Virus record (IMG/VR): IMGVR_UViG_3300030376_006003
Location: 1-64,000 of that record
From: a virus
Taxonomy: Duplodnaviria > Caudoviricetes
Direction: 5' to 3' (one strand)
DNA length: 64,000 nt
The notes under the pieces are model-generated. The model worked only from the letters and a program-made list of their open reading frames with translations. It was not told the DNA's origin and searched no databases. Shown here in pieces: positions 11,675 through 37,800 of the stretch; the first letter of the stretch is position 1; the number at the start of each line of letters is the position of its first letter. Position numbers and translations under genes: made by a program.

Positions 11675-11714
11675 GATGTTGAATTTTTATTATTTTTGTA
11701 TTCTACTTTCTATA

Positions 11715-13739: not shown

Positions 13740-13779
13740 TACCTAGAACAAACACAACAACCATAAGAACAATGTAAAT

Positions 13780-13836
13780 AGCTGGGGTTATATCTATACG
13801 TTTCATATAAACAATATAGAAATTATAATCCCAGTT
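13780..13836 (+). terminator. Long imperfect hairpin between the convergent nrdJ and SET genes
   Basis: AGCTGGGGTTATA-TCTATA-CGTTT...AAAC-AA-TATAGA-AAT-TATAATCCCAGTT; the outer-stem mismatches are G:U pairs on the plus strand. Confidence 0.55.
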
Positions 13837-13862
13837 TATGTTAAGAAAATGTTAAGTGAATG

Positions 13863-14204: not shown

Positions 14205-14209
14205 TTGTT

Positions 14210-17200
14210 TTATTTTATATAAAAGTCATTCATTTGAACAAAGTTTTTCCATTTGTTAACCGTCCCTAAAAATGGTGCAGCATCTCCCCATTCTTTAGAT
14301 AGTTTTAATTCACCAGCTCTAATTCCTCTTGAATAAACTACATCTTTATTATCATAGAAATCTTCCTTAGATTGGAAGCCCCAAGCAACTCCTGTACGTG
14401 CTGTCATTTCTATGGCCTCACCCATCTCCCCCAGAGTTCTAGAAGAAGCAATTGGGTTTTGAATAAAGTGACCTACTTGTTGTAGTCCTCCAGCTCCTGG
14501 GATAGGTACCCATAATACACTCTCATCATGTAACCTATCCATTTGGTATATTAATATGTTTCTTAATCTCTTTTCTATATTGGAAACTTCTTCTTTTGTC
14601 TCTCCGTACATTGGGTTAATGTAATCACTATCATCATCGTCATCTGGGTTCATTCCCCACAATGACAATAGCATTTGTTTTGCTAAGTACGTTCCCATAA
14701 TGATTGCTATCTCTCCTGCTACTCTATGTAAGTTCTGTACTTTCATCTCTCCCTTCTCTCCATGGAATGCTTTATAATCACTTGCATCCATTTGCATCTT
14801 TCCTATATTCTTGAAAGCGTATCCTAAAAAATTCCAGAAAGTCAGGTATCTACCTTCCATCCACCCTAAGTTCTCGTCAAAGTATTCTTGTCTAAATCTT
14901 GCTTTAATTGCTGGAGCTACCCACTTGTGGAACTGTGCAGCTAATTGTCCTAATGAGTTAGATTGCATAACCATTCTATCTTCATAAGCATAGTTACCAT
15001 GTGTTACCTTATTAGTTTCTCTTATATAATTTCTTATCTCATATCTGGCATCATCGTTCCAAGGCATTGTTTTCTCAGAGTTATACATCTTTATTTCAGT
15101 AAATCCATCCTTGATCTTTAGTTCACCTGATACTCTATCAAAACTAAGGGCATCATATAAACTCATTGTTGCACCTGTTTTAGGATTAACAGCTTCAGTT
15201 GAATGTATTATTGCCATTCCTGTTTTACTTTGTACGTTGAATTCACCTGCGTCCTGTAATGCATATGCCCAACTTGTATACTTGTTCCACATGTCTGATA
15301 CATCACCTGACTCACGCATATCTGCCTTGCTATCCATCATTCTAAAGAAGGCAACCATTGCTCCATATTTACTATATGGTATCTTTTCTTTTAGTTTACG
15401 GTCTTTACCAATGTTCTGTTGAGCAACTTTACCAAGGTTCATCATAAGATCACTGCTGATAAACTGGTTATATCCCATCACAGCCTTTGCCATACCTTTT
15501 CTTGTATAGAACCTTTGACCTATTGTTTCCAGAGTATTGGATATTCTACCAAAAGCGTAGTTATTTATATTACCAAATACGTTGGTACCTACATATGCAA
15601 GAGATGTATAGCTAATAAGACCTTTAGTTAACTTATCCCAGAATGTTTTTATCTCATTATCATTATTATAGTATACCATCTTCATCCACTTCTTAGCTCT
15701 CTGTACTAGTCTAGCTTCTGTTCCAGTAGGATCTGCAGCATCTTTAATATTGTTCTGATCATCTACCACTTTTATATCCCCTCTAGAATTAGTATATGTT
15801 CTATCTTCTAATACTTTAATCATGGCCAAATGTGTATCTTCAGCTTGAGCCATTGTTTCATAGTTCTCAGCCATAGCACTAAACTTAAGTAGAGAGTCTG
15901 TCATATCCATACTTATTGTAGTAGATGTAGGTGCATTTTCTAAGGCCCTTAATTTACCCCTTAGTATCTTTATAGGTTGTTTGTACTTATCCTTTGCGGC
16001 CTGTGTCTCAGCGTTTTTGTATTTTTGCTCTAAAGTTTCTAATTCATTATTAAGAGCTACAAAGTCTGCTTCATCTTTCATACTACCTGTAAAAAAGATA
16101 GGTAGTGAATCATTAATAATATGTCCATTCTCATCAGTAAACACCTTCTTAACTCTTGTTGTTGGGTGTATTAGATTAGATCCCCATGTTTTCATCCCTG
16201 TCCACATTCTGCTTACTATGTTCTTTTTATTTTTTAGCTTATCAATCTGTGCAGCTCTAATTACAGGAACCTTTCCAATCATGTGAATATTCTCAGGAAG
16301 TTTTTCTAATAGATCTTTTTCATAAACATCTATAAACATGTTGTAATACTCTAACTGTGCTTTTTGTAACTCATTAGTAGGATTTTGAAGTTTAGCCCAT
16401 TTAGGATTGATCATAGAATTACCCTTACTAGTAACCTCTCTGATTTCTATATATTCTTTTTTAATAACAGGCATGCCGTCTACACGTTCTGTAACTCCTG
16501 TTGGTTGACCATCACTGTCTTTTACAGCTCTCTCATATTCTGGTAGTATGTCATAGTATCTGTTTAAATATGATCTATATTTTTCTTTTGATACAGAATT
16601 GGCTCTTACCCAACGCCCTATACCACTAAACTTGTTATATATGTAAACCTCATGTTTAGCTCTTGCTTCTTTAAACTCATCTGTATACTTGTGATATTCA
16701 GCATCTTCTACACCTTCTTCCCATCTAACCTCAGCTTTCATAAAGTCACCGTATGCTGCCTTATCTCTAGCTAACTGTTTATTATATTCTAACTGCTCAG
16801 GTGTAGCATCCTCTTCATTTTCAATTGTAATGAACTTTTTAAATCCATTATCATCATATAGTTTTGATCTAAGTTCATGTAGTTTATCTTTATATTGCCT
16901 TCCTATCTTTGTTAGATACCTTCCTGTAAACTCACCTGACTCATCAAAATCTAGCATAAAAGAATAGTCTACCTTCTTGCCTCCTGATAATCTAGATAAC
17001 TTTAAACCTGCAGATCTAATTCTTGGGGCCCTTTGTTCAATCTTATCAAGAACCCTTTGTTTATCTCTCTTATAAATCTTATCCATTAGAGCAAGAATTG
17101 TATCTCTTGATGTAGCCATATCTCCTGTTTGATACTCTACGGCATTAATGTCTCTTGCTGTAGTTAAAACTTCTTCTATTTCAGAAGGAGTAAAATTTCT

Positions 17201-19594
17201 ACTTGATTTGTTTTTAATTAGAGTTCTGACATAATCTTTTATTGCTATATCAAATACACCTTTCTTAACAACTCCTTTATCTGCTGATCGTATACCTACA
17301 AGATCATTTAAACTGTCTATTAATATGTCTCTATAATCTTTTTCTGTCTTGTTTAATCCATTTGATTTAGTTAAATGTGTTAAACCTCTAAAGCTTTCAA
17401 CAAATTTACTCCAATTTAATATTTTAGATATAAACTCTTCCTTACCAAAGTTGTCAGGGTTTGTTGCATATTCTTTAAATTCTTTTACTTGTTTTGTTAC
17501 TTCCCTTATTACATCAACATATACTTTACGTATTTTTTCTGGTTCTTCATACATAACTTCAACAATTTGTCTAGTCATCTGAACCTCTTGGATTATTTCT
17601 TTTCTGCTTTTATCCATAGAGATGATATTTCTTGCTTCTTTAATACCTTTTTCTCTACTAATTAAAACTTTTCTAAATTCTTTTAATGCTGAGAATACTG
17701 AATCATATGTAGCATTATCTAATTCTTCAGGTTGTGTCTCTTCCGTAAGATCTTCTACAGGGTTGTTTCCTTCTACATTTCTCTCTCTACCTAATATTTC
17801 ATCTATTATATCTTTATTTGTATGATCAATGTTATCAGCTACTATTTCTTCAACAGCTTCTATATTTTGTGAATCATAGTGAGTTATTGTTCTGCTATAT
17901 TGACCATCTTTACCTATTACTATGGTATGTGAGTTATCAGTTACATCATAACCAAGGTTCTCTAATATCTTTCTTTGTGTATTTATGAATGTAGATTGAT
18001 CAACATCCTTTATGTCAGCAAGTCTTTTGAGGTCAAGCACTGTTATGGATCCGTCTGGTCTTATCCTTAATGCTGTAGCTTTGGTTGCTACTCCACTTGC
18101 TGAGTCAGCAAGAATAACTCCAGGTAATATCACACTACCATCTTCTCTCATCCCTTCTAGTCTGATTGCTATACCTTTAACATCAGTAGGATCAGCTCCC
18201 ATATCATCTTTTAAAATTCCTTCAATAATATGTGCAGAACTTCTATCATTTGCAGATTGATTATATATTTCATTTTCAAGACTTACATATACATCATCTG
18301 AATTATCAAGATCAACAAACTCTCCTGATGATTTATCTATTATTACTCTACTAGTACCAAACGTATCAAACGTTGCCTCTACATCTTCTATTTGATGTAA
18401 AAGTCTATCAACAATATCTACTTGAGCTTCAGTTACTGCTTCCTCTAATGCTATGTCTAAAGTATTTTGAGTTTCTTCACTTAGTGCGTATTGAACTCTT
18501 CTGTCTCCTGTTTCATATAGATCTAATCTGAATTCAAACTCTGTAGTATTTAGCATCTTAGCTATATCAGAAAGAGTCATATCAGAATTAATAAATCCTA
18601 CGTTTAACCTCATGGTTCCACCCATATAGTTTTTATATGTATTTTTTACTATATCACTAAACCATTTTAAAAAATCTTTTATTGCTTGATACCATGGTCT
18701 ACTAGGGTTGGTTTCATATTCTTTATTGAAATGTCTAGATAAAGCTTGAGTAACAATTTCTAAATCTCTATCTTTTTTATAAAATCCCTTTTTATCAGAG
18801 TAAGATGCTTCTATTTGTTGTGATAACTCAGGAAAATTCTTTTTAGACTCATTCAATAAATTAGAAAACAGATTACTATTATTTGAATAGAAGGCATTAA
18901 CAAACGGGTGAAGAACTTCTTCTACCGCTGTATCCTTTGTTACTCTACCTTTTATTAATACAGCATTACCTTTATAGTAAAAACTTTTAACGTCTTTAAA
19001 GTTAACTTTTTTCTTTGAGCTTTTAGGTAGTTCTTTATAAGCTTTTTCAGCTTCACCTGGAGTCATATATCTGACTCTAACTTGAGGGAACATGGATGAT
19101 AAATGATTTACTACATCACCTATTCTTGTTGCATTTGTGTCAAATCTTTCTGCAAGTAAATCTTTCTTTGTAAATAAATTTTCATTTACTATTACTTCAT
19201 AAGTATTTCTTGTTCTCTTTAATGATACTACATTTCCTAAATCTTGATTTCTTAAATAATTCTTAAGTTTAGAAATATTTTGGTTTAAGTATAAACTAGA
19301 TCCTTCTGTTTTTCCTGGTATAGTTACATTAACATACCATCTATTATTAAACTTACTTATGATTTTTTTATTAGCCAGATTCCTTAATAGTGAGCTTGAT
19401 AAAGAATTTCTTCTTATAGATAGCATTATATTATCAGCTTTCATCATATCATCTATGGCTTCTGCACTAGGTATTTCTTCAACACCTGTCATACCTTGCC
19501 AGTCGTTAATTAATAAATCTACTGTTATAGGATCTCCATGAGCTTCCAACAGTTTTTTATATTCTTTAGTATTTCTATTAAAACATCTTGCCAT
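14210..19594 (-). CDS. Large virion cargo/ejection protein, partner of the vRNAP (about 1794 aa)
   Basis: Probable start MARC at 19594 (TAATG overlap with the RNAP stop). Largely helical; degenerate zincin-like TAVEEVLHPF. Its position right after the RNAP matches crAss-like gene order. Confidence 0.75.
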   Translation of the reverse strand: MARCFNRNTKEYKKLLEAHGDPITVDLLINDWQGMTGVEEIPSAEAIDDMMKADNIMLSIRRNSLSSSLLRNLANKKIISKFNNRWYVNVTIPGKTEGSSLYLNQNISKLKNYLRNQDLGNVVSLKRTRNTYEVIVNENLFTKKDLLAERFDTNATRIGDVVNHLSSMFPQVRVRYMTPGEAEKAYKELPKSSKKKVNFKDVKSFYYKGNAVLIKGRVTKDTAVEEVLHPFVNAFYSNNSNLFSNLLNESKKNFPELSQQIEASYSDKKGFYKKDRDLEIVTQALSRHFNKEYETNPSRPWYQAIKDFLKWFSDIVKNTYKNYMGGTMRLNVGFINSDMTLSDIAKMLNTTEFEFRLDLYETGDRRVQYALSEETQNTLDIALEEAVTEAQVDIVDRLLHQIEDVEATFDTFGTSRVIIDKSSGEFVDLDNSDDVYVSLENEIYNQSANDRSSAHIIEGILKDDMGADPTDVKGIAIRLEGMREDGSVILPGVILADSASGVATKATALRIRPDGSITVLDLKRLADIKDVDQSTFINTQRKILENLGYDVTDNSHTIVIGKDGQYSRTITHYDSQNIEAVEEIVADNIDHTNKDIIDEILGRERNVEGNNPVEDLTEETQPEELDNATYDSVFSALKEFRKVLISREKGIKEARNIISMDKSRKEIIQEVQMTRQIVEVMYEEPEKIRKVYVDVIREVTKQVKEFKEYATNPDNFGKEEFISKILNWSKFVESFRGLTHLTKSNGLNKTEKDYRDILIDSLNDLVGIRSADKGVVKKGVFDIAIKDYVRTLIKNKSSRNFTPSEIEEVLTTARDINAVEYQTGDMATSRDTILALMDKIYKRDKQRVLDKIEQRAPRIRSAGLKLSRLSGGKKVDYSFMLDFDESGEFTGRYLTKIGRQYKDKLHELRSKLYDDNGFKKFITIENEEDATPEQLEYNKQLARDKAAYGDFMKAEVRWEEGVEDAEYHKYTDEFKEARAKHEVYIYNKFSGIGRWVRANSVSKEKYRSYLNRYYDILPEYERAVKDSDGQPTGVTERVDGMPVIKKEYIEIREVTSKGNSMINPKWAKLQNPTNELQKAQLEYYNMFIDVYEKDLLEKLPENIHMIGKVPVIRAAQIDKLKNKKNIVSRMWTGMKTWGSNLIHPTTRVKKVFTDENGHIINDSLPIFFTGSMKDEADFVALNNELETLEQKYKNAETQAAKDKYKQPIKILRGKLRALENAPTSTTISMDMTDSLLKFSAMAENYETMAQAEDTHLAMIKVLEDRTYTNSRGDIKVVDDQNNIKDAADPTGTEARLVQRAKKWMKMVYYNNDNEIKTFWDKLTKGLISYTSLAYVGTNVFGNINNYAFGRISNTLETIGQRFYTRKGMAKAVMGYNQFISSDLMMNLGKVAQQNIGKDRKLKEKIPYSKYGAMVAFFRMMDSKADMRESGDVSDMWNKYTSWAYALQDAGEFNVQSKTGMAIIHSTEAVNPKTGATMSLYDALSFDRVSGELKIKDGFTEIKMYNSEKTMPWNDDARYEIRNYIRETNKVTHGNYAYEDRMVMQSNSLGQLAAQFHKWVAPAIKARFRQEYFDENLGWMEGRYLTFWNFLGYAFKNIGKMQMDASDYKAFHGEKGEMKVQNLHRVAGEIAIIMGTYLAKQMLLSLWGMNPDDDDDSDYINPMYGETKEEVSNIEKRLRNILIYQMDRLHDESVLWVPIPGAGGLQQVGHFIQNPIASSRTLGEMGEAIEMTARTGVAWGFQSKEDFYDNKDVVYSRGIRAGELKLSKEWGDAAPFLGTVNKWKNFVQMNDFYIK

Positions 19595-22500
19595 TATATA
19601 TAACATTTTTTAAGCAGCTTCATAACATCATCAGCTGTCGTGTTCTTTCCTTTACTTAACAAAGATACAACATCCTTAGCAGAAATTATAGCTAAGTCTT
19701 CATTCATTGCTAATTTTGCTTGTTGATCCCCTGATAATTCATTATCATACCAATCTGTCAATATCTCTTCATCAGAAAGTTCTAGGTTGTCTTCTTTATT
19801 CTCTATATCTAAATTAAGATCAGCTTGTTCTGTTTCTACTTCATCTTGGTTACCTGCCTCTACTTCCTCACCAAAAAACTTTTCTAAATCTGATACTCCT
19901 TGTTCATCATCTGCTTTTATGTTTATATCATCACCAAAAGACTTTCTCTTATCGTTACCAAACTCAACTATCTCATTGCTTGTAGGTCTATTACCAAACA
20001 TAAAGCCTATAAGTGTTTGTGAAGATGATCCTTCTAAATCTATCTCAGTATACTTTGCTTCATTACCAAAAGCAATATTTGAATCACTTGGTATTATATT
20101 ATTTAGATCTCCGTCTTTTTTATATGCTCCATCTCTAGATACAGTTTCTAACATGTAGTATTTTTTACCAACTCTTAATACTGCTGGGAATTTTATTTGA
20201 GGTACTAATGATTTTGTATCATCTAGTTTTACTTGAATCCATTTAACTCCAAGTCCTGCTTTCTTTAACTTTTCTATCAAGAAGTCCCTCTTTTCTTTAT
20301 TCTTTAAGTTTTTAGATTTATCTGCTAATTTCTTCATAAATCTTACTCTCTTTATTCTTTTTGAATACTCAAAAGGCAGACCTCTAAATATGTCTATTGT
20401 TAAGGTTTTTTCTTCTTCATTAATGAATAAAGGAGATCTTTGATTTATTGTTTTGTTTTTTGTTAAAGACTTATTTATGTTTCTAATGTCTTGGAACTTT
20501 CTAGATGCAAACGGATCTTGTTTATCTGTTTCTGACTGAACTACATATCTTAAATTCTTTCTAGCATTTAATAGTCCTTTTTTAGTAGCTTTTGAAACTG
20601 CATCATTAGCAGGAAATCTAAATGTTTTAGCGTGTATAAGCACTTGAGGAAGGAGTGTACTAGATGCATTTTCTAAACTAAGATTTTGCAGTATAGACTC
20701 TTCAACTAATTTCTCTAAGAGGTAGTTTGGATCCATTGAACCTTTCTTTCTCTTCTGATTATTTGTTATCATCTTGCCTTCAGCATTTTTTAAACCTTGC
20801 GTAACATCACCTTCTTTATATTGTGCATCAATCTTTTTATTAAAAGTTCCTGCCTTAAGGGTTTGATAAGCATGCATTACAGATCCAAACTCATAGATTT
20901 CATTGTTAAATGTATATTTAAAAGGTCTGTAAGCTATGTTTGATAACATCTTAGAATTAGTTACTGACTCAGGAAGATTAAAATCTACAGTAATGCTTTC
21001 TGCACCTTCCCCTATATTTTCTATATCTTCTACGTCCTGAACTTCTATAACATCAACATTTCTAGGAGCCACTGACTTTAAAGCAAATGAGTTTCCTTTT
21101 GATTTTAAATACCCTTTTATAAAGTCATCAACCATTTCATCAAAACTTATATCAAATACGCCTTTAAAAGCTCCTTCTCTATCTGTTTGATCTAAGAATA
21201 AGTTGTGAACTTTATCAACGCTGTTTAATAAATCTTTAGTTAAAGCTGTTGGTATTACATTTATGAATGATCCAGATGCAAAAGACATTCCGCTCATAAC
21301 TGCTGCATAATGTACTATATGTTGAACATCATCCCACATTGTACCGTCTCCTTTATCTAAATTCAATAACTCTAAGATACTATTTTGCACTCTAACAAGT
21401 GTAGAATCAGAAGGTTGAGACCAACTGTTTGCTTCTAACTTTATCATCCCTGATTTATTATCTTCGTGTTCTGCTCTTATTATTCTTGTAAAATTATTGA
21501 TAAAGTAATTTGATTTATTTTCTTCTGCTAATCTATCTTTAACTCTATCAACCACTTTAGATATTGTTAGTGCTTCTGCATCCATGTTACTATATATGCT
21601 ACCATCATATATTAAACTATTTGATAATGATTCTAGAGAATTGTGTCCATATGGATTTTTAGATAAGTTAACCATATATGCTTTTAAAGTTAAATAATTA
21701 ACTAGATCTCTATTAATTTGTTTAATATCTGGTCTACCAAGATTTGCTATTACTTTGTTTTTAAGTTCTAAAAACTTAGGCGTTCTTTTTAAGAAAACTC
21801 TAGGTGTTAAGTTATCATAGAATTCTCTAAATACTTCATAATGAGCATTATGCATTGTACCTTTCTTTAAGAATATACCACGTAAATCTACAGGAATAAT
21901 ACTATCCTTAAACTCTTTTTCAGTAGCAAGAAGACCCAGTTGTTCTGCAGCTTCTTGTTTGCTATCAAGCTCTATTAAGTCTTTACCTAAACCTTTTTGT
22001 AAATTAAGAAGTGTACTTGCATGTGATGTAGCTTCAGTTATTTTATTAAATCTTAAGAATTGCTCTATTACCTGATTTTCTAATGAAAGTTGATCAACCT
22101 CTAGTGTCTCTATTCCTGCTACTGTATACGCTTCTTCTCTATTTAGCTGTATAGTTTCTATTCCTGTTATTAAGTTCTGAATATTAAGTTCAACTTCTGT
22201 TATTGATTTTTCTTTATTTAATCTTTCTTGTATAGCTTTTTGTCTTCTCTCAAGTAAAGTTTTATAACCAGGATCAAACATACCCTCTTTATTTTCACCG
22301 TGGAATAATGCTTCTTTAATTGTTGGGAAGTTTAATAATAATACAGCTGTCTTTAAGTCAACACCCATACCTAACATTGTTACAACATTGGCAAGAGCTT
22401 GTTTATTAAGACCTAGTTTAGATGCTAATCTAAGTTTAGCATTATCAGTCATTGCTGTAATAAGAGCAGATATTATAAACTGTTTTCTGTGTAATTCTGG

Positions 22501-25500
22501 ATCAGACTTCTTTGTTGAATGATTTATTTCATAATCATGTTCAAAAGTATTATAAGTAATACCGTTCATTTCAGGATGTACTTTACCTCTTAATTCAATC
22601 TTGTATTCAGTTAATATACTTGATACAACATTTGGAAGGACTACATTACCAATAGATCTTGCTCCCGCTTTATTATTTGTCCAAGCTTCAATCTGACCAA
22701 GCATGCTATCTACATCTGTAGAGTTTTCACCTAATGTTTTTAATACTTCTCCCAATTCATCCATTAACCATTCATATACCCCTCCTTCTAATCCTTGCTC
22801 TTTACCTTTAGGATCTGATAATGGTGTAGTAACTGCTGGTTCAAAATATAATCCAACATGTCTACCTTTACGTGGATCTGTTATACCTGCATTACCTAAT
22901 AATGCGTATTTTATATCTAATAGGTTATTATCAATTGCTGATTGATATGGTTCTCTTTTATTAGTATTTTTAAATTCTAGATATTCTTCATAAGTAACAG
23001 GTAAGCCTAATGATTCTAAAGCTTCTGGTAAACCTTCCGCTCTATTATATAAAGTTTCTAACATAGAGTCATTTAAAGAAGGACCATACATGATTGCATC
23101 TAATACCTCTTTCATAATCTTATATGAGCCTGCGCTTAATTGTTTACGGTAAGCCTTTTGCTCTTCAGCACTCATAGCGGCATAATCCTGAGCAGTATAT
23201 TCTACAGGAGTTACGGTTCTGGACCCTGTTGTCCATCTATCAAGAGCCTGTCTGATAGCAGATGATTTGCTTGCGTTCTCTACAACCCATCTTACATAAT
23301 GCTTATATGCTTCTTTATTGTCTTTAGTTTTCCCGTACTCAACAAAATCTTTTCCATCATAGAAAAAATCTTTTATGTGCATATACAGTTTATCAATATC
23401 AAAATCAGCTCCAGATAACTCTATAAGTTCTCTAGCATACATTGCTGATGATCCGTAGTAAACAGGTAGGTAATCTACTAATTTAAGATTTACTGCAGAG
23501 TGCTTATCTTGTGAAGGAATTCTAATACCAAACATTTTAGCAATAGCGTCAGGAAGAGGTTGATTCCATGCTACTGAATTTTGTAACATAGATCTAAAGT
23601 GAGGAGGCATCATAAACTCAGTATATCTCTGACCTGTAGCCTTTCCGTCTTTATACTCCATTACATTACTTCTTAATCTATCCATGAAAAAGTCTCCTAC
23701 TTTCAAAGTATGATCCTCTAAGTTTTCATATAACATCCCACCATTATCTGTCTTAAGTGCTTGATATTTAGAAGGTCTTCTTCTTTTTAGATTTTCCCAA
23801 TCGTCACTTCTTATAACTTTCCACTCTGTTGGTGTTCCTGTTTCATCAACCTGCACAACTTGTTTAATAACACCCATGTGTGCATCAGATACTAAAGCTG
23901 CAGATATACCTGGTTGCTTGGCTGCTAATATTCCTTTTGAGAAATAAGCAAGAAAAAGTTCTTCAAACTTCTCATGAGTCATGTTATTATTTAGGTTATA
24001 TTGAGGATTACCTAATTCATCTACTTGAAAGTAAGATAACATTTGAGTTTTAGCCTGAGATGATTCTAGACCTGCAATTGCATATTTAACAAAAGCTCTT
24101 AAATCTCCGTCTAGTTTTTTAACTTTATTATTAGGTACAAATCTGTTTATATCCATTACTCTATCTAGAGTTGATATTGCATCAGACCAATTAAAAGTTA
24201 AGTTTCTTTGAGCAAAGAAGTTGTTTAATAGTTTATCTCCTGCCAATTTGTGGTATTGTCTTACAAGATCTCCTACAGGAACCTCTTCACCGTTGAATAT
24301 TACAGTAGCTTTTGGATCTTGTTCTCCTGTTATAAGATTTTTAATCTGTCTTGCATCAACAATTACTGTCTTATTAGAAGGATTAATCATTTGTAACCTC
24401 ATATAATCTGCAGACAAGTCCATTGTGTGCTTAGTGTTAATAGGTTTCTCATTAATCATATCAAGATTATCAGGCATAATATTTTTGTTCATCATTTTTG
24501 ATGCTGACTTAGGAACTGACATTCCTAGTACACCTTCACCATTTGCCCAAGCGTCTTCCTCCATTTTTTCTAACTTCACCCTCATATTATGAAGCCCCTC
24601 TCTACCTTCTCTTGCTATCCATTCTCCATTTTCATTTTTTACAGATGTTAAATTTTTAGTTAGGGTTATACCTGACATTTTAAGGAAGGTTAGACCATCA
24701 CCATAAACAATCTTTAGTGAATTTGCAATCATGTCTAAGTTCTTGTAGCTTAGCTTATTATTAGTTCCAAAAAATTCTCTGTTTATTTTTATAATGTCAC
24801 CTTCTTTAATTAAATCTAATACTTCTGACTGAGATTTATTTAACTTACCAAAACCAAATAGCATATATCTTAACGCCTTTTCTGTCAAATATATCTGACC
24901 ATCTGTTAAGTCTGCTAATTCTTTCTTTCTAGCTTTATCTCTATTATATATTTCATTAAATTGTTGGGTATACTCAAAATCTTCATGAACTACTGCTTTC
25001 ATCTTATCAACCTTGTGCATAACTCCTTTGGATTCATCAAAGATCTCTGTAGCTGCAGATTGTCCTGCACCATTTTGCATCTTAGCTCTTTTAACTGCGT
25101 CAATAAAGTTCTTTAATGATAAGGCTTGATCACCAAGCAGTAACTGATTAAATGATTTAGTATTTATATAGTTGTTTAGATATATCTGAGCTAAGTTAAA
25201 ATCTAAATTGTCAGGTTTTAGATTATATAATTCCATAAAGTATTCAGAATCTGAACTGTCATATGCAGTATCTTTACCTCCTTTTACCTTTTTATATTCT
25301 CCTAGTCCGGAAGATATTTCTTTAGAGACTTTGTTATAAGCTTTTATCTCTTTTAAGGTTAGGATAAACTCATTTACCTCATCTGTTAGTCTTTGTTCAA
25401 TTATCTTTCTACCTTCTACTTCATTAAAGACTGTATCAAATAAATCTTTTTCTTCCACTCCCTCTCTACCAATTTTAGCAGCTTTCTCTAATATCTCTAC

Positions 25501-28500
25501 AACAGTCAAATCAACATCAACTTGTTCTACTGTTATCTCCCCTGTTTCTTCTGACTCAACAAGTTTGTTCTCAACGTCTTCTGCTTCTTCTACTCTAACA
25601 AAGTCAAATACAACCATATCTTTATAGCCTCTAAAGAAACGCATTGTATCATAACTATAAGTGTTATATACTGTTCCATCTATCTCTAAAGGATATTGCT
25701 TCTTATCTTCGTGTTTAATTGTTGTTATTGATGGATAATAATCTTCTCTTAGTTGAACTTTTTCTTCATCTGTTAAATCATTCCAATTCTTAACCCCTCT
25801 ATTTGTCATTAAGAAAAATTCCCCATCTATTTCCACAGTGGCGTTTTCTCCTTGAGATAGGTTTGAATATATAGCATCTGTTGAATTTGATATGTATACT
25901 TTTTGTTTTCCCTCTGTTATTGCAGCTCTCTGGTCCTTTCCTATCTTTGGTAATCTAGCTTGTATATTACGTTTTCTTGACTCTAATTTTGAAAGAAGTG
26001 TGTATGTTGTATTTAGTTTACCTAGTCTTTCTTTATTATCATATGGGTTTTCAACACCTTCTTTTTCCTGTGTATAGTATCTTCTAGCTCTATCAAATTC
26101 TATACGTATCTCATTAGTGAACATGTCTAAAGCTTTAGATGACAGCTCCATGCCTTCTTTGCTTTTGTTCATCATCTTGTGTATAGGTAATGAAACAAAA
26201 TCTCCTGTATTAGCAGCTTCTATTACCCTTATGTTTAGAGGAGCAAATGCAAACTCTAACTTAGTACCAGGATTACCTACTTCTGTATTTTTAGGAGAAA
26301 CCCTGTTATAATTATATACGTATGAATGTATTAAGTCTAGTGCAAATTCTCTTGGTGTTGATTTACCAAAACTAACTCCTTTACCTTTTATACTTCTTCC
26401 TCTTTGGGTTGTCAGTCCTTGATCCCCTAACATCAACGCTTCTTCTTTACTACCAACAATACGTAAAGCCCTAACTTGTCCTGCCTCAACCATTGACTTA
26501 AATTTAGGATCTCTAAGTAACATGTTCCTTTCAAAGAATACATCTTCTTTCATTTTCTCAGATATATACTCAGCATTATCCATCTCAGCAATTTTTTCTA
26601 AATGGAATGTTGGATCTTGATGAGCGTATCTTCTGTTACCTTCAGCGTCAATAAATGTTGATGCACCAACTGTTTCATCAAATCTAGAGTTATTCAATGC
26701 AAGTTTTTTTAATCTACCTTTTACACCACCTTTTTCATATTTAACTTCTGAACCCTCTTCTGCTTCAAATACTGTTTGATTATCTAAATATAAGTTTTCA
26801 CCAGAAGCTAAAGATTGTCTTATGTAAGAAATTGCTTCTACTTCTATAGGCTCTACACCTCTATAACTATTATATAATGCTTCCTGTTCTTCAGTAAGGT
26901 TTGCTAAATTTTCATATACACTGTATAATATGTAATTCTCATGGATATTCATACCTGCAACAGTTCTTAAAACTTCAGTAATATCTCTCACCTCTTTAAG
27001 TAAATCATAATTCTCAGGAATAGTTGTATACTGTAATATACTCTTTAGTTCTGTTAGTGTATCTTTAACCTCTTCACTTTCTGGAGACCCTTGTATTTTT
27101 AATCTAGAATATCTTCTATTAAAGTCTTCAGCCCATTGTTGAACCGTAACGTGAGCATCATCTTTTTTATTTGCAGCATATAAATGTGTTATTCCTGTAT
27201 CAGTATCTGTATGTGCAAATATATTATCAACTCTGTATTTTCTAAATCCTTTTATAAATGATAAATAAAGTGATGAATTACCCACTTGACTAGGAATACT
27301 GCTTCCTGGTTTAAACATTTCTCCACTAGTTGCAAACTCATATATACCTATATCTCTAAATAATTTGTCAACAACTGCTTTAGTATGTTTATTATGCTTA
27401 CTAAACATCCAAGCTTTCTTAAACATCTCTAGATCATTTGGTGTATTTGCAAGAACTTTAAGTAAACCATTATATACATTATTAGGATCAACAGAGACTA
27501 TTATAGGTTCTCCTGTTTCTAAATTTACATATTTATTATTATATCTATCTTTTTCTTCAATAGTGGTTGTTGCTATAAGATGTCTTATACGTTTAGGTAA
27601 AGAAGAATAACCACCAAACATGTCTGCTGTTTTATCATAGTCACCTACAGATTTCTCATCTTGCTCTGCATAATCTGCATCTTCAGAGATAGGAACAGTT
27701 GAAAATTCTATAAGGTTTCTATTAACTAGATCTTTTATATCATTAACCTGCTCTAAAAGAGATTCATAAAGTAATGTTAATTCATCCACATTATCATCAA
27801 ACCACAAACCTTGGTCAATATAGAAATCTCTTTCTGGATTATACATTTCAATCCAATCAGCAATTGTGTCTTCCAGTAAAAGGTTTCTGTCTATAGGACC
27901 TTTTGCGTCATCTGCTCTTCTGCTATATAAATTTGCAATTCCAGAAACTATCTCATGTGTTTGATCAGATGGTATATAGTTTTTAACTTGTTTTACTTTT
28001 GATGCCCCACCTACAGATGTTCTTTGTATAAACTTAGGGTCATACAATTCTAATTTATATGCTACATCTCCTTCAAAGTTTCTTGTAAATCTATTTTCTT
28101 TGATAGAAGCGTTCTTATATTTTCCTGAATCTATACCTTCAAATAGTCTATTAAGTTTTCTAGTTGAGAAGTTTCTTAGTACCTCTAGTATAAAGTCTAT
28201 TAATCTTGTAAACATTGATTTATTCTCAGAATCAGTCTTGCTATTTCTAGGATTCATTTTGAATTTCTCAAACTCATCTGCTAAATGCTCTTCATACAAT
28301 CTGTCTTTAAGTTCTTTATCAGACATCTCTGCATACATCAGATGCTGTCTTCTCATTTCTTTTATTGCTTGATCTAAAGTTTTTCCTTCAGCTCTTAATT
28401 TTGATCTTACTTCTTTTTCAGCTAACTTGAGATATTTTTTAATTTCTGCATCTGTAAGAAACATTCTGAATACTGCATGAAAAGCTTCGTGATATTTAAA

Positions 28501-31500
28501 TGGAGAATTTTCTCCTACTGTTATTACTCCTTCTAATCCTGGTATACCTCTTGATATATCTTTTAGATTCATCATAAAGTGACCTGCTGTGATATAACCA
28601 GACTTTAGTTTTTCAGTAAGATTCTGAATATCAACTTTTACATTCTCAGGCATATTGTGTTTAACCCATGTTGTAAATGTTTCTACATCTTCAATATCAT
28701 GACCATCAAAACTTCTTATTATTTTATTTGCTCTTGATTTAGCAGCTGCAAGTAATCCTTCTAAAGTTCTTAACTTAGGATCTACAGCCATAATGGACTT
28801 GTTTAATTCATGTACTTCTCTATGTGATAACTTAGCATTATCTGGGTTCTTTCTATTGTTATCTCTAATTTCTCTCTTTCTATCCTTAATTTTTTCTGTT
28901 AACTCTATTATTTCTCTAACTTCTTCTTGATTCTTTTGTTCTGATTCAGTGTTAGACTGAGTTACTGGTCTGGTTGATAGCTTAAGTCTAAGACCTTTAA
29001 GCACTTCAAGATTTTGTGAAGCAATTGTTTTTTCTAATTCTGTAAGCTCTTTTTCTGATAATTGTTTTTTAGCTATATCTTCTAAAATCTCTGGATCTAC
29101 ATTTTTCATTTCAGTTACAAATGCATCTCTCTTTTCAGCAGGACTCATGTTATCAGCTTCCTTTGGTCTTTTAAATTCTTCTGACTTAGCAACTCTTCTC
29201 CTTACTGCTTTTATAGATTCTGTAGAACTCAATGAGAAGTTAAAATCTTTCTTAACCTCCTTGTTAAGTGATGTAGACATCTTATTAATATGTTCTATTG
29301 TAGGATTTTTAGGAACAGAATGTTTGAAGTTTTCTAAGGTTATGTTAGCTTTTCCTTTAATTGGACTTTTCTTACCAAAAAGAGCTTTGTTAACTTCATC
29401 AATTACGTCTTGTACATCTTGCATTTCTTGAAAAGCTTCAGCTTTTATTACAGTATAACCTCTTTGAAGTTTAGCACCTTTTTTAAGATTTAAGTTTGAA
29501 TAGTCAACTCTAAAAGAACCGTTCTCAGAAAGTTTCATCTCTAGATAAACACCTTGTTCTGATGATATAAATAATCTATCTTGTAATTTGGCATTATAAG
29601 GTTTATTATAACCTAAAGTTTTTACTTTATTATCCTCTGTTATATTATTATCAGTAGTTTCAATAGATTTATTTTGAAGTTCTGTAAATAGATTTGTAAC
29701 CTCTGTCTCAGACATTGTAGCTGGCATAAGATTAATAAACGCAGATCTACCGTTAGGTAAAGTAACAAAAGCAACATACTTACCTAATCTTTCTTGAGGA
29801 GAAAATTTCTTTTCATATATCTTTACTTCTTCTTTTAGTTTTCTAAAAGAGGGTGAATTTGTTTTAATATTAGAGATAATACTATATTCTACTTTTCCAA
29901 CATCCTTGGAGTCATCGCCTTTATATTGTCTATTATAATCTAATATATAATAAGGCTCTTCACCAGGATTCCTCATATCTTCTTCTTTAACTCCACTTAG
30001 AGAATTAAATTCTAAGTCTTCAAAGAAAACTCCTTCTCCAGGTTCTGCAAGAGACATAGATCCTTCAGATATATTGAGTCTAATCTTTAGATCTTTTTGT
30101 GTAAAGTTCTTAGCTCCCTCTACATTTTTCATTGCTTTATCTATTGCTTCATATATACCAAAAGCTTCTGTGTAATTATCTCTTATCTCTTTAGTTTTGT
30201 CTTCAAGGTTTTCATTAGCATAAATCTTAAAAATATCCTGAACTTGTGATTCTGTTATTTCCATAGGATTTATAACATTACCCTTTCTATTTACCAGTCT
30301 TAATGTAGTTGGTCCTTGAAAAAATCCAATGGTCTCATTATTCAACTGTATTTCAACTTGCCATTTTTGACCATGTCTCTGAATTAGTTCATTTTCAATA
30401 GCATCTTCAGCTTCTTTAAAGCTTTTTTTGTTTTTTTCTTCCTCTGCACGGAACCAGTTTGGGCCTGGTGAAACTCTAAATGTTATATTATTAGCCTCCT
30501 CTTCTGTTAGATTTCTTAGAGTTTTTTGTAATCTTTCTACACCTTCTTGAATTTGCTCAGATCTATTTTTAATTGATCTATCATATACAGGAAATACTAC
30601 TAAAGGTTCATTTGGTTTTATCTTACTAGCTCTATTTTTATAATCTAGTTGCTCATCAGATATTTTATCTAACTTCATTGCTTTAAAAGCTTTCTCGTCA
30701 GCAAATATCTTATCTTTCTTAAGCCTACTATTTACTTTTTCTAATTTTTTAAGGTATATGTTTTTGTTTGTCTCAACCATTGTTGGTGTAGAAAACACCA
30801 TATATTTATTCCCGTCTGAATCAATAAGTATATCTCCTCTTTGGTAGTCCATTTCTGCAAAAGAAAAAGGTGTATTCTTATCAATGTTATTTCTTTTTTC
30901 TTTCTCAAGGTTTCTTTTAGCAGTTTCAGCTTCTTTTTTATTAAGATAGACTTTATCATCTATAGAGTCTCCGTTCTTATCTGTAACATTATATATTTGA
31001 ATGTTTTCTCCTGTATCCTTATCTCTTTGTTTTCTTACCTTAACTTTGTAGTTTGGTTTAGGTTTCTTTCCCATAGTGCCTTCTGACTCTACTTCAACAC
31101 TGAAATCTACAATATCATTCATTGTAATACCAACACTTCTTAGTATGTCAGAAATTCTAGGATCATTTCTCATTGTGGATAACCACTCATAGAATGTACC
31201 ATCAGATGATTTCAACAACTTCTCTTCTATGTATATTTCATCATGTATTCTATTGATTGCGCTTTCTGCTTTTCTTGCTTTAAGTGATATAGGGCTGTCT
31301 AACCATTCTGCATGATCTGTAAGAATCTTCTCTTTAGACTTTGAATCTTCTTTACTTAATAAATATTCTTTATGTTTTTTTACTAAGAATGCTGTACCGT
31401 AAGGGTTACCTGTGTATTTACCCAAAGAATCCTCTGATATAGATTCATTATTTTCATCTTTTTCAAAATGTGTATTTGCAAAGTTGTAAGGATCAGCTTC

Positions 31501-34500
31501 TTCTTCCTTTACATTCTCTTTCTTCTCTTCTGTTTTTTTCTCTTGAACTTTATTACCACTAAGGTTTAAATATGTACCTAGTATTTCATCTTTCTTTTGA
31601 TATAAGCTTATGTTTGAATCTGGTGATAGAGGTCCATCTTCTGTAAAGTATAAAGAAGGGGCATCTCCTCCTTTTAGAAAGGTTTCTACTTGATCTTCAA
31701 TAGGGTAGATTCCATGATTAGCTAACTGATTAAGGAAGTCAGTTTTTTCTTTTTGTTCTACATGAGCTTCCATTCTTTTCTTAACTCCAAGCTTATTTTC
31801 CATAAAAAGCTCTTTAAACTTTACAGCTATCTTGTTAGAAAGAGTTGAAAGATAATTAGGATCTGTCATGATTTGAATAGCTTTGTTATAATCTTCAGAT
31901 CTACCTTTAAGACTTTTATGATCTATAAGATCTATAATAGTACTCTTAATTTTATCATACTCTACAAATGATTCCTTGTTTTCACCAGAGACATGATTTA
32001 AAAAACCCATAACTGGTTTTTCTAACATATCTATATTATCTGAATTAAAAATACCAAAAGGATTAGCGGAGCCTGATTCATATGTCATTATAAGTTCAGA
32101 ATCTACATCTGTAATATCCTTTGAGCTTAATATAGTTTCTCTAACTTTCATGATAGATTCATCTACCATATCACCTTTAGTTCTGCTTTTAATATCATAC
32201 TTCTCTATATTATCAGGATCAGTAAGAGTTGCAAAATATTCTTGAAGGTTGGTTAGTCTTTCTTTCTTTTTATCATAAATAAGTTTATCTTCTCCAGATA
32301 AAGTAATCTTCTCTTCACCGGTTGGAGATTTCATATTCTTTAACTCAATCTTCAATAATCTTATTTCTGATATTAACTGTCGTGTATCAGCAAGAACTCC
32401 AATATCATTAGCTGCCATTTTACTAATAACAGGATTTTCAGAAAGTTCAGTATATATTTTATTAGATCTTTCTAATGCTCTTTCAAATGTGTTTCTTGTA
32501 AACAAAGCCAACATCTTAGCATGGTCAAATGCTTTTGCAGAAATCACTTCATCTAAATGTTCTTTAGTTCCTTTTTTATATTGAGCTGGAGAATAAGGAT
32601 TTATAATCTTATCATTAAGATCTTCATATGCTTTTTCAACATCATTCATTCTATTAAGCATACTTTGTAATCTATCTCTTGTTTTGCCTGATTTGATTTC
32701 TTCTGGAGTTGCTTGCTCAAATGCTTCAGCTAAACCTTGATCATCTAACTTAAGGTAGTCTTCCATCTGACCTTTAAACTCATGCATCTTTCCTGCATGT
32801 AATACTGTGTAAAGATGATGAAACTTACCTGCATCTTTTTTATCCATAAAAGACATAGCATCTTCTGCAAAAGATGAAGTAAAGAGTGACTCGTTTATTT
32901 CTTTTTGAGTTAGTGCATGAATTTTATTAGGGTTAAAATATTCTTCTGGATTCTCATAAACTTCATTTAATATATCAACAGTCTCTTTAATGTATGTTTC
33001 TTTATTCTTTTTATATTCTTCAAACTTTTTAGGATCTGCCATTCTTTGATATAGTTCAGGTCCTTTTTCAAATACCATTTTTTGTGGTCCTCTTACTAAA
33101 CCACCCATTAAAAATCCTGACATAAATACCTCAAAGCCCTCATGAGACATTTGAGATCTTGTTCCTGCTAATGTAGATGCCCAAGCAGCATCCATACCGG
33201 AAGCCATTGGATCTTGATATAAATTATAATAATAGTCTTTTGCTCCTACTGCTATACCTTCTTGTGTTATTTCTTGAAAACCTTCTACAAGATTAAATCT
33301 TCCGTAGTTTAAAGCTGCACCAGCAAAAGTTTTTAAATTACCACTAAAACCTTTATTAACAAATCTTCTAAACATTGTGCTACCACCATCATAAAAAGCT
33401 TTAGCTCCATCTTTTTTCATTTGGTTGGCAGAACTTTTTAGTATTCTGCTACCAATACCCTTTTTAGTAGCTGCTAACAAAGCACCTGTTCCTTTAAATC
33501 CTCTTAACATAGTATCAAATACAAATGCATTTGAAAAATATATTACAGGAAAGTTTAACATTATTGTTTTAAAAGCTGCCTGGTCTGCTGCATTAGATAT
33601 TTCAGTTAGCTCTTCTCCTATAGGGGCACGTCCATGCTTATCTACAAACTCTGCATAGAGCTGATCTACAAGATCATTTTTAACCATTCCTCCCTCTAGC
33701 TTAGATTCAGCCATAGCAAGATTGATCATTCTCAGATCTCTATAGAATGCGCCAAATGTTTTAGCTGTTTTTGCTGCTGCTGACAAAGACTTAGCTGTAC
33801 CTTGTACTGAGCGTATTGACTTAAGAGCCTTGTAAGTATTTGGTGTTAGAGCATTACCTGCCCATCTTCCACCTTTCATCCAAAAATCTTTAGCCCAATC
33901 TAGATTTTTCATGTTAGTAAGCATCTGTCTACTTTTTTCTGCATATGCTCCTACATCAAACATTTTATCTATAGCTTTTACACCTCTTTGAGCATTGTAT
34001 GCTGATCTACTTGCAACCAAAGGAGTGGCTCCTCCAAATGTTGCCGTATTAAGAAGACCTAATGCAAGTTCTTCTACTGCTATATTAGACATTATACCTA
34101 CAGTATATCCTGAGTTTAACATAAGATTGTTAAAGAATGCACCAGTACCTTCTTGTGTTGAATTACCAATTCTCATTGCATCAGCAAATGCTTCTGCTGA
34201 TTCTGTATCTGGTCTCATATAGTCACCACTCATAAGATCACCTATAGCATTATAAGTACTTAGAAAACCTGTTCTAAATATTTTACCATACTGAGTCCAC
34301 ATTCTAGCATTTTCATCCCACCATGTTGATTGTTCATTATAAGCTAACTCATTGTTAGCATATGGATGAAATCCTATTTGATTGAATTTTGGATGATTAT
34401 AGTATCTATCAAAGTTACTACCTTTTATACTAAATCTAATTGGTTGAGCTTCATTAGGTAAATTATTACCCAGCTTATACATTACATCATCTATAACAGA

Positions 34501-34808: not shown

Positions 34809-37800
34809 TTATTGAGAATTATCACTCTTATCTTCAGTCTGCTCTGCTTTATGAGCATTAGCTGCATCAGTATTAGTTTTTATGTTTGCCCTTAGTCTTC
34901 TATCATATTCATTATATATTTCATCAATAGCAAGTCCTGATGGTGGTAATATTTTTGGTTCTGAGTATGGGCCTTTTACTAAAGATCCTCCATTAACATT
35001 CTTATCATAGTATATTTTAGATTCTTTAACCATCATCTGACCGTTGCTATCTTTAAAAAATATTACTCTTCCTCCTTCATTATCAATAGTTCTTACTTTA
35101 TTGAGATTAATAAAGAATTCTGTTTCTGATACATAAGTATTTTGTACACTATTAGGGTTTTGTGATGCCAGGTCTCTAGGTGCAAAAATTGTTATAGCAT
35201 TACCCGGTAGAGCACTAGCTGGAACAAGCTTGTTGTTTTTAGTGTCGCTTGATGATTTTTTTGTAGAAGCATAATCACTATTTAAAGTGATAACCCAACC
35301 TCCATGTTTACCTCCTCCTTCTTCACCACCTATAACTTCAGCCCATCTTATGTTTATATTTGGTTCTTTACCTTTACCGAATGACTTAGGGTCTCTCTTA
35401 AGATCTTTAAATATTTCTTTTAGTACAATCATAGCATCTGGATTAGTTACTGCATCATATGAAGCAGATGCATCACCAGCAACTACTGAATAGTTCATTG
35501 AAGGAGTTGTTAATAATTGATTAATTAAAGCTAATTGAGCATTGGCTTTTTCATTTACTTGACCAGTTATATAGTCTGAATCATAAAAATTAAACAATGT
35601 TCCTCCTGCTCCTGTTTGTTGTTGATTTGTTATATAAGATGCAAAGTTAAAGTTCAGTGTACCAGCTGGTGCATTTGCTCCTCCCATCACTTTATTCATC
35701 TTATCTTTTACTTTTACAAATACAGATTGAGCATCATCTTTACCTATAAATTCATCATAGATGTTTTTAAAATGTCTTTTAGCTACAAAGTTAATATCAG
35801 ATTGTCTCCCTGTTTTATCTCCTGGTGCATTGGCAAGCCTATGATCTCCATAAGTACCATTCCAAGGATATATTGCATCAAATAATGCGTCTACATCTTG
35901 AAACCCAAAATTATCAGCTATTTCTTGATATTTATTTTTAACATCATTACCTGCTTGTTCTTTATAAAAAGGTAAGTCATTCATTGCTTCAGTATACCAA
36001 TTTACAAAATCAGTATTCATTTTACCTACTATTGCATCAGGATCTTGAATTACACCTCTAGTGTTAAATAAAGGATATGCTTCCATCATTTTATATTCAA
36101 CAGTATTTATATCTCCTTTAGAAAGCAAGAGATCCACCACATTCCTATATACATCTCTTTGTTTTTCCCAACCTGCTAATAACTTAACAGATTCACCATC
36201 TATCTTTCTTTTATTATTATGTAAAATTTCATAAAGAGCAGGGTTATCTTTTTGTAGACTAGGTCCAGTATCTATACCTTGATAGATAGCATCTACTTTA
36301 TCAAACTGAGCTTTTAATTCTAGTTTATTTTCAGGATTTGTATAATATTCTTTTGCTTCCGCCCATGTCATAAACTCTCCATTAACTTTCATTCCCTCTG
36401 TAGAGTATGTATTATCATCATCACTTAGATCTTGAGCTTTCACCTGATAATATCTTTCAATAGAGTTCCATCTCAAATCTCTTATCTCATTTATTTTATT
36501 GTTTGATGTTGTTGCATTTTCAGCTATAATATCTATTATTTCATCATCATCTGGATAAGAACCTGAAGTTGAATTTGCATCTCCTGCCACTACCTGTTGA
36601 GATCCACCAGCTCCTCCAAATATTTGCTGTTGGTTAGTGTTAGAAGGATTTCCGCCAGTTTCTGCCCAAGGCATTGGTATCAACTGACCATCTTCACCAA
36701 TCATGTAACCTTTCTCAAATGCTGTTTGTATTCTTTTATTAGCAGCTTCTTGCTCTTCCATTCTCTGGTTTAGTATATGCTGATGATTTTGTAATGCAAA
36801 CTTATCAGCTTCAATAGTTCTTTCTGAATTTATGTCTGCATAAAACTTAGCTGCTTCTCTTGTGTCTGCATCAATATTATATTGCATAAAAGCATTTGTA
36901 GCTTTCATACGTAGATCATTAAGATCACCTTTTGATTCTGCTGTAATTACACTATGTTTCTTATCAAAAAGTTTTCTACCATTTGCTAGAGCAATATATT
37001 CATTGTATGCTTGTGCATATTTTTTATGTTCTTCTGATCCTAACACAGGTGTGCCGTGTTTTGCTTTATATGCTTCCCAATTATTTTTTGCTTCTAGTGC
37101 TGATGTTAACTCAGCTTCTTTTTTATCATTTTCTTCACTGTGTTTTACATTATAGTCTGACAACATCTGCTCATAGAATACTCTTTCAGCTGCATCCTTA
37201 CCTCCATACTTTTCTGCATTTTCTTCATAAAACTGCCTAGCTTTAACATAAAACTTAGTTTGATAAAATCTTTGAACTCTAGGATCATCTAGTGTAGTTT
37301 GTAATATGTATTCTTGTGCAGGATTTGTGTAGATGATATTATCATCTTTATCTTTACCCACAGCTCTTCTAGTTAATAAAGTACCATTTCTTTGTGTTAT
37401 CTGATAATGCCCATCTTTAGACATTGATACATCAGTAACATCCATACCTAAATCTTTTAATTTTGCAATACCAATTTCAACAAGATTTACATGTTCTACA
37501 GCTTCTGGTAATTGTACTTGCATTGATCCTTCTCTAGTTGCATTTTGAAAATCTGCCATGCTATAGTTAAGAGCTTGTACACCACCGTCCCAATATTTTT
37601 TTCTAGTTTCTTCATCTTCACTACCCTTCCAACCTTGAAACCTTTGTTGTTCTGTTTTAAATCTTTTAGTAAATACAATATCTCTAACTATTTTTTCATC
37701 TTCAAAGAATGGTGTAAATAATGCCTTTGCAGAATCTACATTTTGTGCTAATGAAAAATCTACACCAGATATTTGCTGCAGTTTTGGAGCAAGTTCTTGA

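Follow-up and report, generated by a model that had tools for sequence, protein, structure and literature searches.

How an RNA polymerase cargo of more than 600 kDa passes through the narrow tail of crassviruses, the most abundant human gut phages, is an open question, for which the cryo-electron microscopy atlas of the crAss001 virion could only propose partial unfolding of the cargo. In crAss001, gp47, gp49 and gp50 belong to the virion cargo and are thought to exit partly unfolded (PMC10172136). The DNA analysed here, a window of 64,000 nucleotides (the whole stretch considered, positions 1 to 64,000 of the IMG/VR record IMGVR_UViG_3300030376_006003; whole genome, 128,949 bp), encodes the virion RNA polymerase (RNAP) cargo block of a marine crAss-like phage. 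Its cargo genes lie on the minus strand. Two of them encode giants, a 5068-amino-acid (aa) protein bearing the RNAP and the 1794-aa protein of the next gene, and each giant has one lone cysteine (Cys) close to their common junction. The two giants are probably injected into the host, and the Cys pair points to a tether joining them end to end.

Two lone cysteines at a cargo gene junction

By counting residues with a script, we could confirm what an earlier note on this DNA had claimed from a manual scan, namely that the 5068-aa protein has a single Cys third from its C-terminus (residue 5066) and that the lone Cys of the next protein, about 1794 aa long, is residue 4 (Table 1). No internal Cys, which the earlier note had listed as a possible contradiction, is present in either giant. 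Also, the TAATG coupling of the two genes and the lack of any Cys in the 1064-aa and 1283-aa cargo proteins proved to be as described. An in-frame ATG at 19606 would extend the 1794-aa protein by four residues; relatives favour the M-A-R-C start. Since the other open reading frames (ORFs) of the genome hold 1.58% Cys, about 145 Cys would be expected in the 9,209 residues of these four Cys-poor proteins, which have 2 (Poisson P ~7e-60). A random distribution of these two would bring one into the final 3 residues of the RNAP giant and the other into the initial 4 of its partner with a probability of ~1.3e-6. The note had further set Cys-poor cargo against Cys-rich external proteins. This stands for the muzzle protein (42 Cys) and for a 2602-aa SprB-repeat protein (78 Cys), but two proteins encoded between the 1064-aa and 1283-aa ones, with 8 and 9 Cys, had been left out.

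The identity of the block was established by homology. On the same strand and just upstream of the cargo, the Pfam families crAss_MUZ (3e-30), CrAss_Ring_1 (4e-08) and CrAss_Ring_2 (5e-17) were found, all above the gathering score. Two segments of the 5068-aa protein have matches in Kehishuvirus 'tikkala'. Residues 2044-2234, including the zincin motif, align with its gp47-like protein (residues 2104-2255, in the C-terminal part; E 4e-7), and residues 3725-3858, with the catalytic motif inside, match its gp50-like RNAP (BLASTP E 5e-14) and phi14:2 g066 (BLASTP E 3e-7). Calling the 5068-aa protein an RNAP, as the note did, is therefore right for its catalytic gp50-like half, but the protein also contains a gp47-like, zincin-bearing one and is a fusion. 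The 1794-aa protein matches the Kehishuvirus gp49-like protein (E 4e-26) and phi14:2 g065 (E 7e-12), and a tblastn search with it gave matches in 48 crAss records. The sets g067-g066-g065 of phi14:2, where g066 is the crystallised virion RNAP, and gp47-gp50-gp49 of crAss001 are homologous, sharing the DFDxD motif, the part with the zincin H-E-x-x-H and the gp49-like part. These similarities divide the block into three ancestral parts, A (gp47-like, with the zincin motif), B (gp50-like, the catalytic RNAP) and C (gp49-like), encoded as one, two or three polypeptides depending on the lineage; here A+B make up the 5068-aa protein and C the 1794-aa protein. Homology and gene order also indicate that the window's proteins are probably packaged and ejected, the demonstration by mass spectrometry (MS) being that for crAss001 and phi14:2 only. 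Neither giant gave anything significant in Pfam or PHROG scans, or any match in PDB sequence searches by phmmer (single sequence) or by profile. The window DNA had no match among phage records, nor had the single-protein locus search, and the atlas feature search returned only leads scoring below 0.9.

Conservation at split junctions and loss on fusion

In the clade of this phage we examined 120 homologs of the 1794-aa protein, at 33-100% identity. A Cys is present among the first 8 residues of 118, and in 112 there is no other. The two homologs without it begin internally and are truncated gene calls, and internal Cys number 8 in 228,743 residues. RNAP homologs have one Cys each, third from the end, in 10 cases out of 10. 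With a profile of C we obtained 78 IMG/VR loci, 73 of them with an analysable junction. In all 73, the upstream giant ORF has a Cys 2-5 residues from its end, and the single Cys of the downstream protein falls at residue 3-6. The upstream Cys is the only one in the visible ORF (at least 3,300 residues in most loci) except in loci L067 and L072, where the additional ones are spurious, coming from a short split-off ORF and from out-of-frame translation, respectively. The 56 distinct junctions among these loci give the logos E-E-F-[IL]-[DE]-x-[IL]-K-K-C-x-[LI] for the C-terminus and M-A-[KR]-C-x-N-[RK]-N-T-x-E-Y-K-A-L for the N-terminus, with K or R usually directly before both Cys, a neighbour that favours a reactive thiolate. 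In an alignment of 37 homologs of the 1794-aa protein, C4, N6 and H229 are invariant; an invariant block, G-R-V-T..E-E-x-L-H-P-F, spans residues 216-231 of its N-terminal domain. By using HMMER with the conserved C-terminal 719 residues of C, we scanned 1.84 billion cluster representatives (50% clustering) and obtained 1045 hits. Among the best 150 of these, 98 are at least 1400 aa long; an N-terminal Cys is present in 95 of the 98, and the last 12 residues are free of Cys in all 98. Longer relatives, in which the 1794-aa protein would be fused, were sought among proteins of up to 5000 aa, a range that ends below the ~6,900 aa of an RNAP+C fusion.

The gene spacing in relatives goes from -1 to +16 nucleotides, once +134, and the relative frames differ. 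Both TGT and TGC serve as Cys codons (TGC in several relatives), and the Cys offset drifts by whole residues, with 1-4 residues following the C-terminal Cys and the N-terminal one at residue 3-6. Since spacing, frame, codon and Cys position all vary, the constraint acts on the proteins.

We then compared 13 named genomes from Steigviridae, Intestiviridae and Suoliviridae. Both facing Cys are present at all of their 14 split junctions, so that the co-occurrence of C-terminal and N-terminal Cys, which the earlier note had put forward as a check, is found at 73/73 loci and at 14/14 named junctions from three families. In phi14:2, the only Cys of g067 (A) is its last residue, g066 (B) has two, at residue 3 and second from the end, and g065 (C) has its only Cys at residue 3. 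In crAss001, Gp47 (A) has a Cys third from the end, the sole one among the 2006 residues seen, Gp50 (B) has Cys at residues 5, 1334 and ninth from the end, and the only Cys of Gp49 (C) is at residue 5. The same rule applies to A, B and C of Kehishuvirus 'tikkala' (gp47-, gp50- and gp49-like, the gp47-like Cys being second from the end) and to DAC15, with Cys third from the end in _61, at residue 5 and as the last residue in _63, and at residue 4 in _62. Where A is separate and B+C are fused (Carjivirus, crAss002 and cr271_1), A has its Cys second from the end and B+C starts M-S-C, a start that requires the annotated one to be moved downstream to the next ATG in Carjivirus and crAss002. Where A+B are fused and C is separate (cr50_1, cr10_1, cr118_1, cr60_1 and cr55_1), the Cys lies 2-11 from the end of A+B and at residue 3-5 of C. 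A separate middle protein B has Cys at both ends. At the block's outer limits, where A begins and C finishes, no genome examined has a terminal Cys.

The Cys pattern is thus highly non-random and conserved across the order. As read from the sequences, separate parts always have a Cys at the end of the upstream polypeptide and another at the start of the downstream one, nearly all other Cys being purged. The facing positions on which the earlier note had insisted are real, but the gene adjacency is incidental: the A gene lies on the strand opposite to B and C in crAss001 (gp47 opposite gp50), Kehishuvirus and DAC15, and the codon adjacency in the window is therefore incidental too. The phi14:2 and crAss001 blocks resemble that of the window in that their genes come after a muzzle gene and two to four Cys-poor cargo genes, and in obeying the same terminal-Cys rule. 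The window, by contrast, has A and B fused (5068 aa) and encodes larger proteins, whose Cys purge is complete, with 2 Cys in 6,862 residues.

Some observations concern the annotation of these genes. The annotated B+C starts seem too far upstream in Carjivirus MW067002 (L082 ~16152-16220) and crAss002 gp33 (L083 ~15996-16094); one of the two is a non-ATG codon, and starting at the next ATG yields M-S-C, the start seen in cr271_1. In cr10_1 (NC_055875, L084 ~21960-25574), the 4460-aa gene is followed by a gp49-like gene that begins M-K-I-I-C and lacks annotation in the record. An RNAP-bearing protein from another lineage, P0131 (3558 aa, Logan assembly), has a C-x-N-x-N..E-F-K start (Cys4) and a Cys as its last residue; because of it, the N-terminal Cys motif is not tied to the gp49-like family.

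Fusion removes the Cys. First, the A|B junction, fused in the window's 5068-aa protein, has none. Second, when four Suoliviridae A+B fusions were aligned (25-33% identity), the C-terminal Cys alone was conserved, and in three aligned Intestiviridae B+C fusions (31-37% identity) Cys3 alone was, every internal Cys being lineage-specific. Third, in locus L100 (JGI 3300072490 contig, 10001-23359) A+B+C are one 4452-aa protein with a Cys at neither end; its zincin motif is at 1129, D-F-D-V-D at 2480 and the C part at 3534-4452, and its gene directly follows the muzzle gene and two Cys-free genes. The prediction that the Cys vanish on gene fusion was thus borne out, with no conserved junction Cys in the A+B and B+C fusions and no terminal Cys in the A+B+C protein. 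At this length, the latter falls well short of the window's two proteins, which total 6,862 residues. Lone Cys in the B+C fusions of Carjivirus (2220), crAss002 (2108) and cr271_1 (2545) were considered as marks of the former B|C junction and rejected, as they align to V/I, T/T and A/A, respectively, in the two other fusions. That such matching by eye is unreliable was evident from a motif look-alike near the catalytic site, and a hidden Markov model of the C N-terminal domain did not locate the exact junction in fused proteins.

An additional split was found within the clade. In the IMG/VR record G002 (L067:9548-9991 and L094:16468-18294), the gene of a 609-aa protein stands between those of the RNAP body and its tail module; this protein contains a C-x-x-C motif and, by Pfam (1.6e-05), a YkuD L,D-transpeptidase domain. 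The tail module is there encoded separately, as 148 aa with Cys3 and a further Cys fourth from the end, and the RNAP body has one Cys, 62 from the end. In G001/L023, a shorter RNAP (3288 aa) opens the block and has, as expected, no N-terminal Cys. Extra splits in L037, L054 and L072 were rejected as frameshifted assemblies. P0230 was rejected as an exception, its gene call being broken by an in-frame TGA; the same-frame upstream ORF starts M-S-I-C and the preceding giant has a Cys fourth from the end. P0138, N-terminally incomplete through a 23-nucleotide tandem duplication, was left uninterpreted. In L101 (9221-10001; NCBI GCA_040384425.1), a gp49-like gene has one in-frame TGA right after a Cys, giving 175-aa and 1516-aa pieces in the same frame, which could reflect read-through, recoding or a sequencing error.

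A candidate disulfide tether and its alternatives

AlphaFold2 (AF2), with a 41-row alignment, modelled the last 300 RNAP residues at a mean predicted local distance difference test (pLDDT) of 78, as a folded domain followed by ~40 low-confidence residues, which correspond to an acidic region, and a ~60-residue four-helix unit (pLDDT 92-96) whose last helix is terminated by the Cys. For the first 300 residues of the 1794-aa protein (mean pLDDT 79), residues 1-9, including Cys4, are modelled as a coil before helix 1. In these models both Cys lie on exposed ends, the RNAP one on a flexible leash, with which pairing is compatible, not proven. Prediction of a complex between the last 150 aa of the RNAP and the first 300 aa of the 1794-aa protein gave a median of 0.38, with one control at 0.47, and counts neither way.

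Since a disulfide is the simplest chemistry for two co-conserved, exposed and lone thiols, the pattern suggests that the tether is probably of this kind. Once the virion leaves the reducing cytoplasm, each facing Cys pair would oxidise to an intermolecular disulfide; because the cytoplasm is reducing, these bonds would form after particle release, as the tail disulfides of crAss001 must. Given that the Cys sit within a few residues of the termini, the joined product would be nearly linear, an unbranched head-to-tail chain with overhangs of 0-10 residues only, and it would pass the narrow tail channel partly unfolded and in a fixed order. The purge of the remaining Cys would prevent loops or branches from jamming the channel, and thiol reduction in the host cytoplasm would free the RNAP from its partners. 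On balance, we favour the reading, put forward in the earlier note and supported by the co-occurrence and fusion checks, that head-to-tail disulfides join the separate cargo proteins into one linear thread for ejection and that the cytoplasm reduces them. We hold about even chances for its order-wide form, in which throughout Crassvirales a disulfide would functionally replace the peptide bond at splits, a thread of ~5,000-7,000 residues would always exit the capsid in a fixed order, and host reduction would be the switch that frees the active polymerase.

Several points weigh against such a thread. First, the disulfide itself is inferred, direct evidence for it being found neither here nor in the crassvirus literature examined. 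Second, assembly takes place in the reducing cytoplasm, so the bond would have to form inside the capsid after lysis, and gut crassviruses inhabit a largely anoxic environment. Third, a 1:1:1 pairing of the three proteins per virion is assumed. Fourth, the Cys purge is incomplete outside the clade: Intestiviridae and Suoliviridae giants have 2-15 internal, non-conserved Cys, and crAss001 gp50 carries its internal Cys at residue 1334. Fifth, the Cys lies further from the terminus in some proteins, at 9 residues from the end in crAss001 gp50, 11 in cr10_1 and 62 in the G002 RNAP. Last, recombinant phi14:2 gp66 is active alone in dithiothreitol (DTT), so that the linkage is unnecessary for catalysis, which is neutral for a role in ejection.

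The published data were searched for such a bond. The crAss001 virion has intersubunit disulfides in its tail, and its atlas, which included reduced and non-reduced MS samples, does not mention cysteine in the cargo (PMC10172136). Terminal cargo peptides were looked for in one supplementary file of the atlas and none were found. The phi14:2 RNAP preprint, where gp66 was purified in DTT/tris(2-carboxyethyl)phosphine, mentions neither cysteine nor disulfide. In full-text literature there was no account of terminal Cys in crassvirus cargo, with subscription papers mostly outside the coverage and absence therefore unproven. These searches point to an end-to-end terminal-Cys tether being undescribed in the literature searched.

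Among the alternatives, the one that survives best is still unlikely. The terminal Cys could bond elsewhere, either to a Cys-rich structural protein (portal, muzzle or ring) as an anchor or plug, or in tail-to-tail or head-to-head homodimers. Structural proteins here are indeed rich in Cys (42 and 78), crAss001 tail proteins have many disulfides, and bonding partners cannot be read from sequence alone. However, the Cys are confined to termini facing another part, never at the A N-terminus or the C C-terminus, and they are lost on fusion, on which the role of an anchor or homodimer would not depend.

We give somewhat less credit to a facing pair that works without a disulfide, by sharing a metal ion or by thioester- or thioether-type covalent chemistry. 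Co-conservation proves a joint constraint and not its chemistry, and the flanking conservation on the N-terminal side (N at +2 in 56/56 junctions and E at +7, relative to the Cys) is unexplained. Yet there is one Cys per side with no adjacent conserved cluster of His, Cys or Asp, two thiolates alone make a poor metal site, and the drifting Cys offsets disfavour a precise coordination geometry.

It is very unlikely that Cys4 is an intrinsic functional residue of the 1794-aa N-terminal domain, for instance a nucleophile acting with the invariant His229, and that the RNAP Cys is unrelated to it. The invariance of C4, N6 and H229 would fit such a role, as would a weak, sub-threshold match of residues 234-403 to Pfam DUF1839. 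However, an N-terminal Cys is equally present on the unrelated gp50-like N-terminus, always together with an upstream C-terminal Cys, and the gp49-like part of B+C and A+B+C fusions has no conserved Cys in that region. AF2 places the Cys in the N-terminal coil, outside the core. A Foldseek search of the domain model against PDB gave no fold match to any Cys hydrolase and nothing below E 0.3, its weak and non-significant rows being zincin proteases. The dependence of the Cys on splitting and fusion argues both against this explanation and against bonding to other partners.

Last, chance or a nucleotide-level artefact (an RNAP TGT forced by the overlapping ATG at 19606, or codons serving translational coupling or a -1 frameshift at an A-run) has next to no probability: in the window the ATG 19606-19604 does overlap the TGT 19605-19603 and a six-A run precedes, but most relatives lack the ATG/TGT overlap, their spacings, frames, codon and Cys position vary, the upstream ATG of L003 runs into a stop and one crAss001 Cys pair is encoded on opposite strands. 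A TGT forced by the ATG and a -1 slip at the A-run that would fuse the genes were both ruled out by the variable spacing and frames.

Neighbouring genes, related systems and significance

The 2602-aa protein with SprB repeats also has FG-GAP repeats and is probably an external fibre and a hint of a Bacteroidota host. A solitary gene similar to class II (B12-dependent) ribonucleotide reductase, encoded on the plus strand, separates the cargo block from the fibre gene. Inside the cargo block, the 1192-aa and 1383-aa proteins, without any Pfam or PHROG family, have regularly spaced Cys (C-x9-C-x11-C-x-C twice and C-x10-C three times). Also, a 174-aa protein has 13 Cys (7.5%), ten of them in its first 50 residues, followed by an fn3 domain.

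Table 1. Positions of the cargo genes, terminal Cys and other features in the window.
Feature	Position	Strand	Basis or remark
5068-aa virion RNAP fusion (gp47-like N-half, gp50-like catalytic C-half)	19594..34800	-	single Cys
1794-aa gp49/g065-like protein	14210..19594	-	single Cys
TAATG stop/start overlap joining the 5068-aa and 1794-aa genes	19592..19596	-	sequence
Cys5066 TGT codon, third residue from RNAP C-terminus (ends K-K-C-Y-I)	19603-19605	-	script count
Cys4 TGT codon of 1794-aa protein (M-A-R-C)	19583-19585	-	script count
RNAP C-terminal tail module, last 45 residues, within predicted ~60-residue four-helix unit; Cys at end of last helix	19597..19731	-	
N-terminal motif M-A-[KR]-C-x-N-[RK]-N-T-x-E-Y-K-A-L of 1794-aa protein; Cys in predicted coil before helix 1	19550..19594	-	
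N-terminal domain of 1794-aa protein	18695-19594	-	
G-A-D-F-D-I-D-K catalytic motif, aa 3797-3804 of 5068-aa protein, two-barrel RNAP	23389..23412	-	
H-E-A-F-H zincin-type motif, aa 2104-2108, gp47-like half of 5068-aa protein	28477..28491	-	
1064-aa Cys-free protein directly upstream of RNAP	34809..38003	-	cargo by gene position only
1283-aa Cys-free protein with transglycosylase-like segment	45855..49706	-	cargo by gene position only
crAss muzzle homolog, 2553 aa, 42 Cys; start of cargo gene block	49706..57367	-	Pfam
1192-aa protein, regularly spaced Cys	38063-41641	-	
1383-aa protein, regularly spaced Cys	41646-45797	-	
2602-aa SprB/FG-GAP protein, 78 Cys	3565-11373	-	
Class II ribonucleotide reductase-like gene	11880-13739	+	
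174-aa Cys-rich protein with fn3 domain	60817-61341	-	

The proposed tether has partial parallels. In AB toxins such as diphtheria toxin and clostridial neurotoxins, one disulfide holds the translocated enzymatic chain to its partner while outside the cell, and cytosolic reduction frees the active enzyme; the chains arise by nicking of one precursor inside a disulfide loop. Here, in contrast, separately translated proteins would link end to end, at their extreme termini and in series. Schitoviridae (N4 gp50, the virion RNAP; DEV gp71, gp72 and gp73) also have a giant virion RNAP with co-ejected proteins in which Cys is strongly suppressed. The N4 RNAP is T7-like (single-subunit), whereas the crAss RNAP is of the two-barrel type. 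The Schitoviridae virion RNAP differs in being a single polypeptide, essentially Cys-free, and no conserved terminal Cys or pairing has been reported for it. Cys suppression in Schitoviridae ejection proteins has been attributed to passage through the oxidising periplasm (PMC11445570). The structural disulfides of crAss001 (tail hub, ring proteins and gp57 dimer) show that intersubunit disulfides do form after assembly, but these stabilise the external tail and the capsid vertex and are neither in the internal cargo nor terminal and head-to-tail (PMC10172136).

The terminal-Cys rule can be used in annotation, where it marks the true starts and ends of giant genes. If the tether is true, it would give crassvirus cargo an order of ejection and a physical mechanism for it, and would add a redox-triggered release step. 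It would also account for the free fusion and splitting of the module in evolution and for the extreme cysteine purge.

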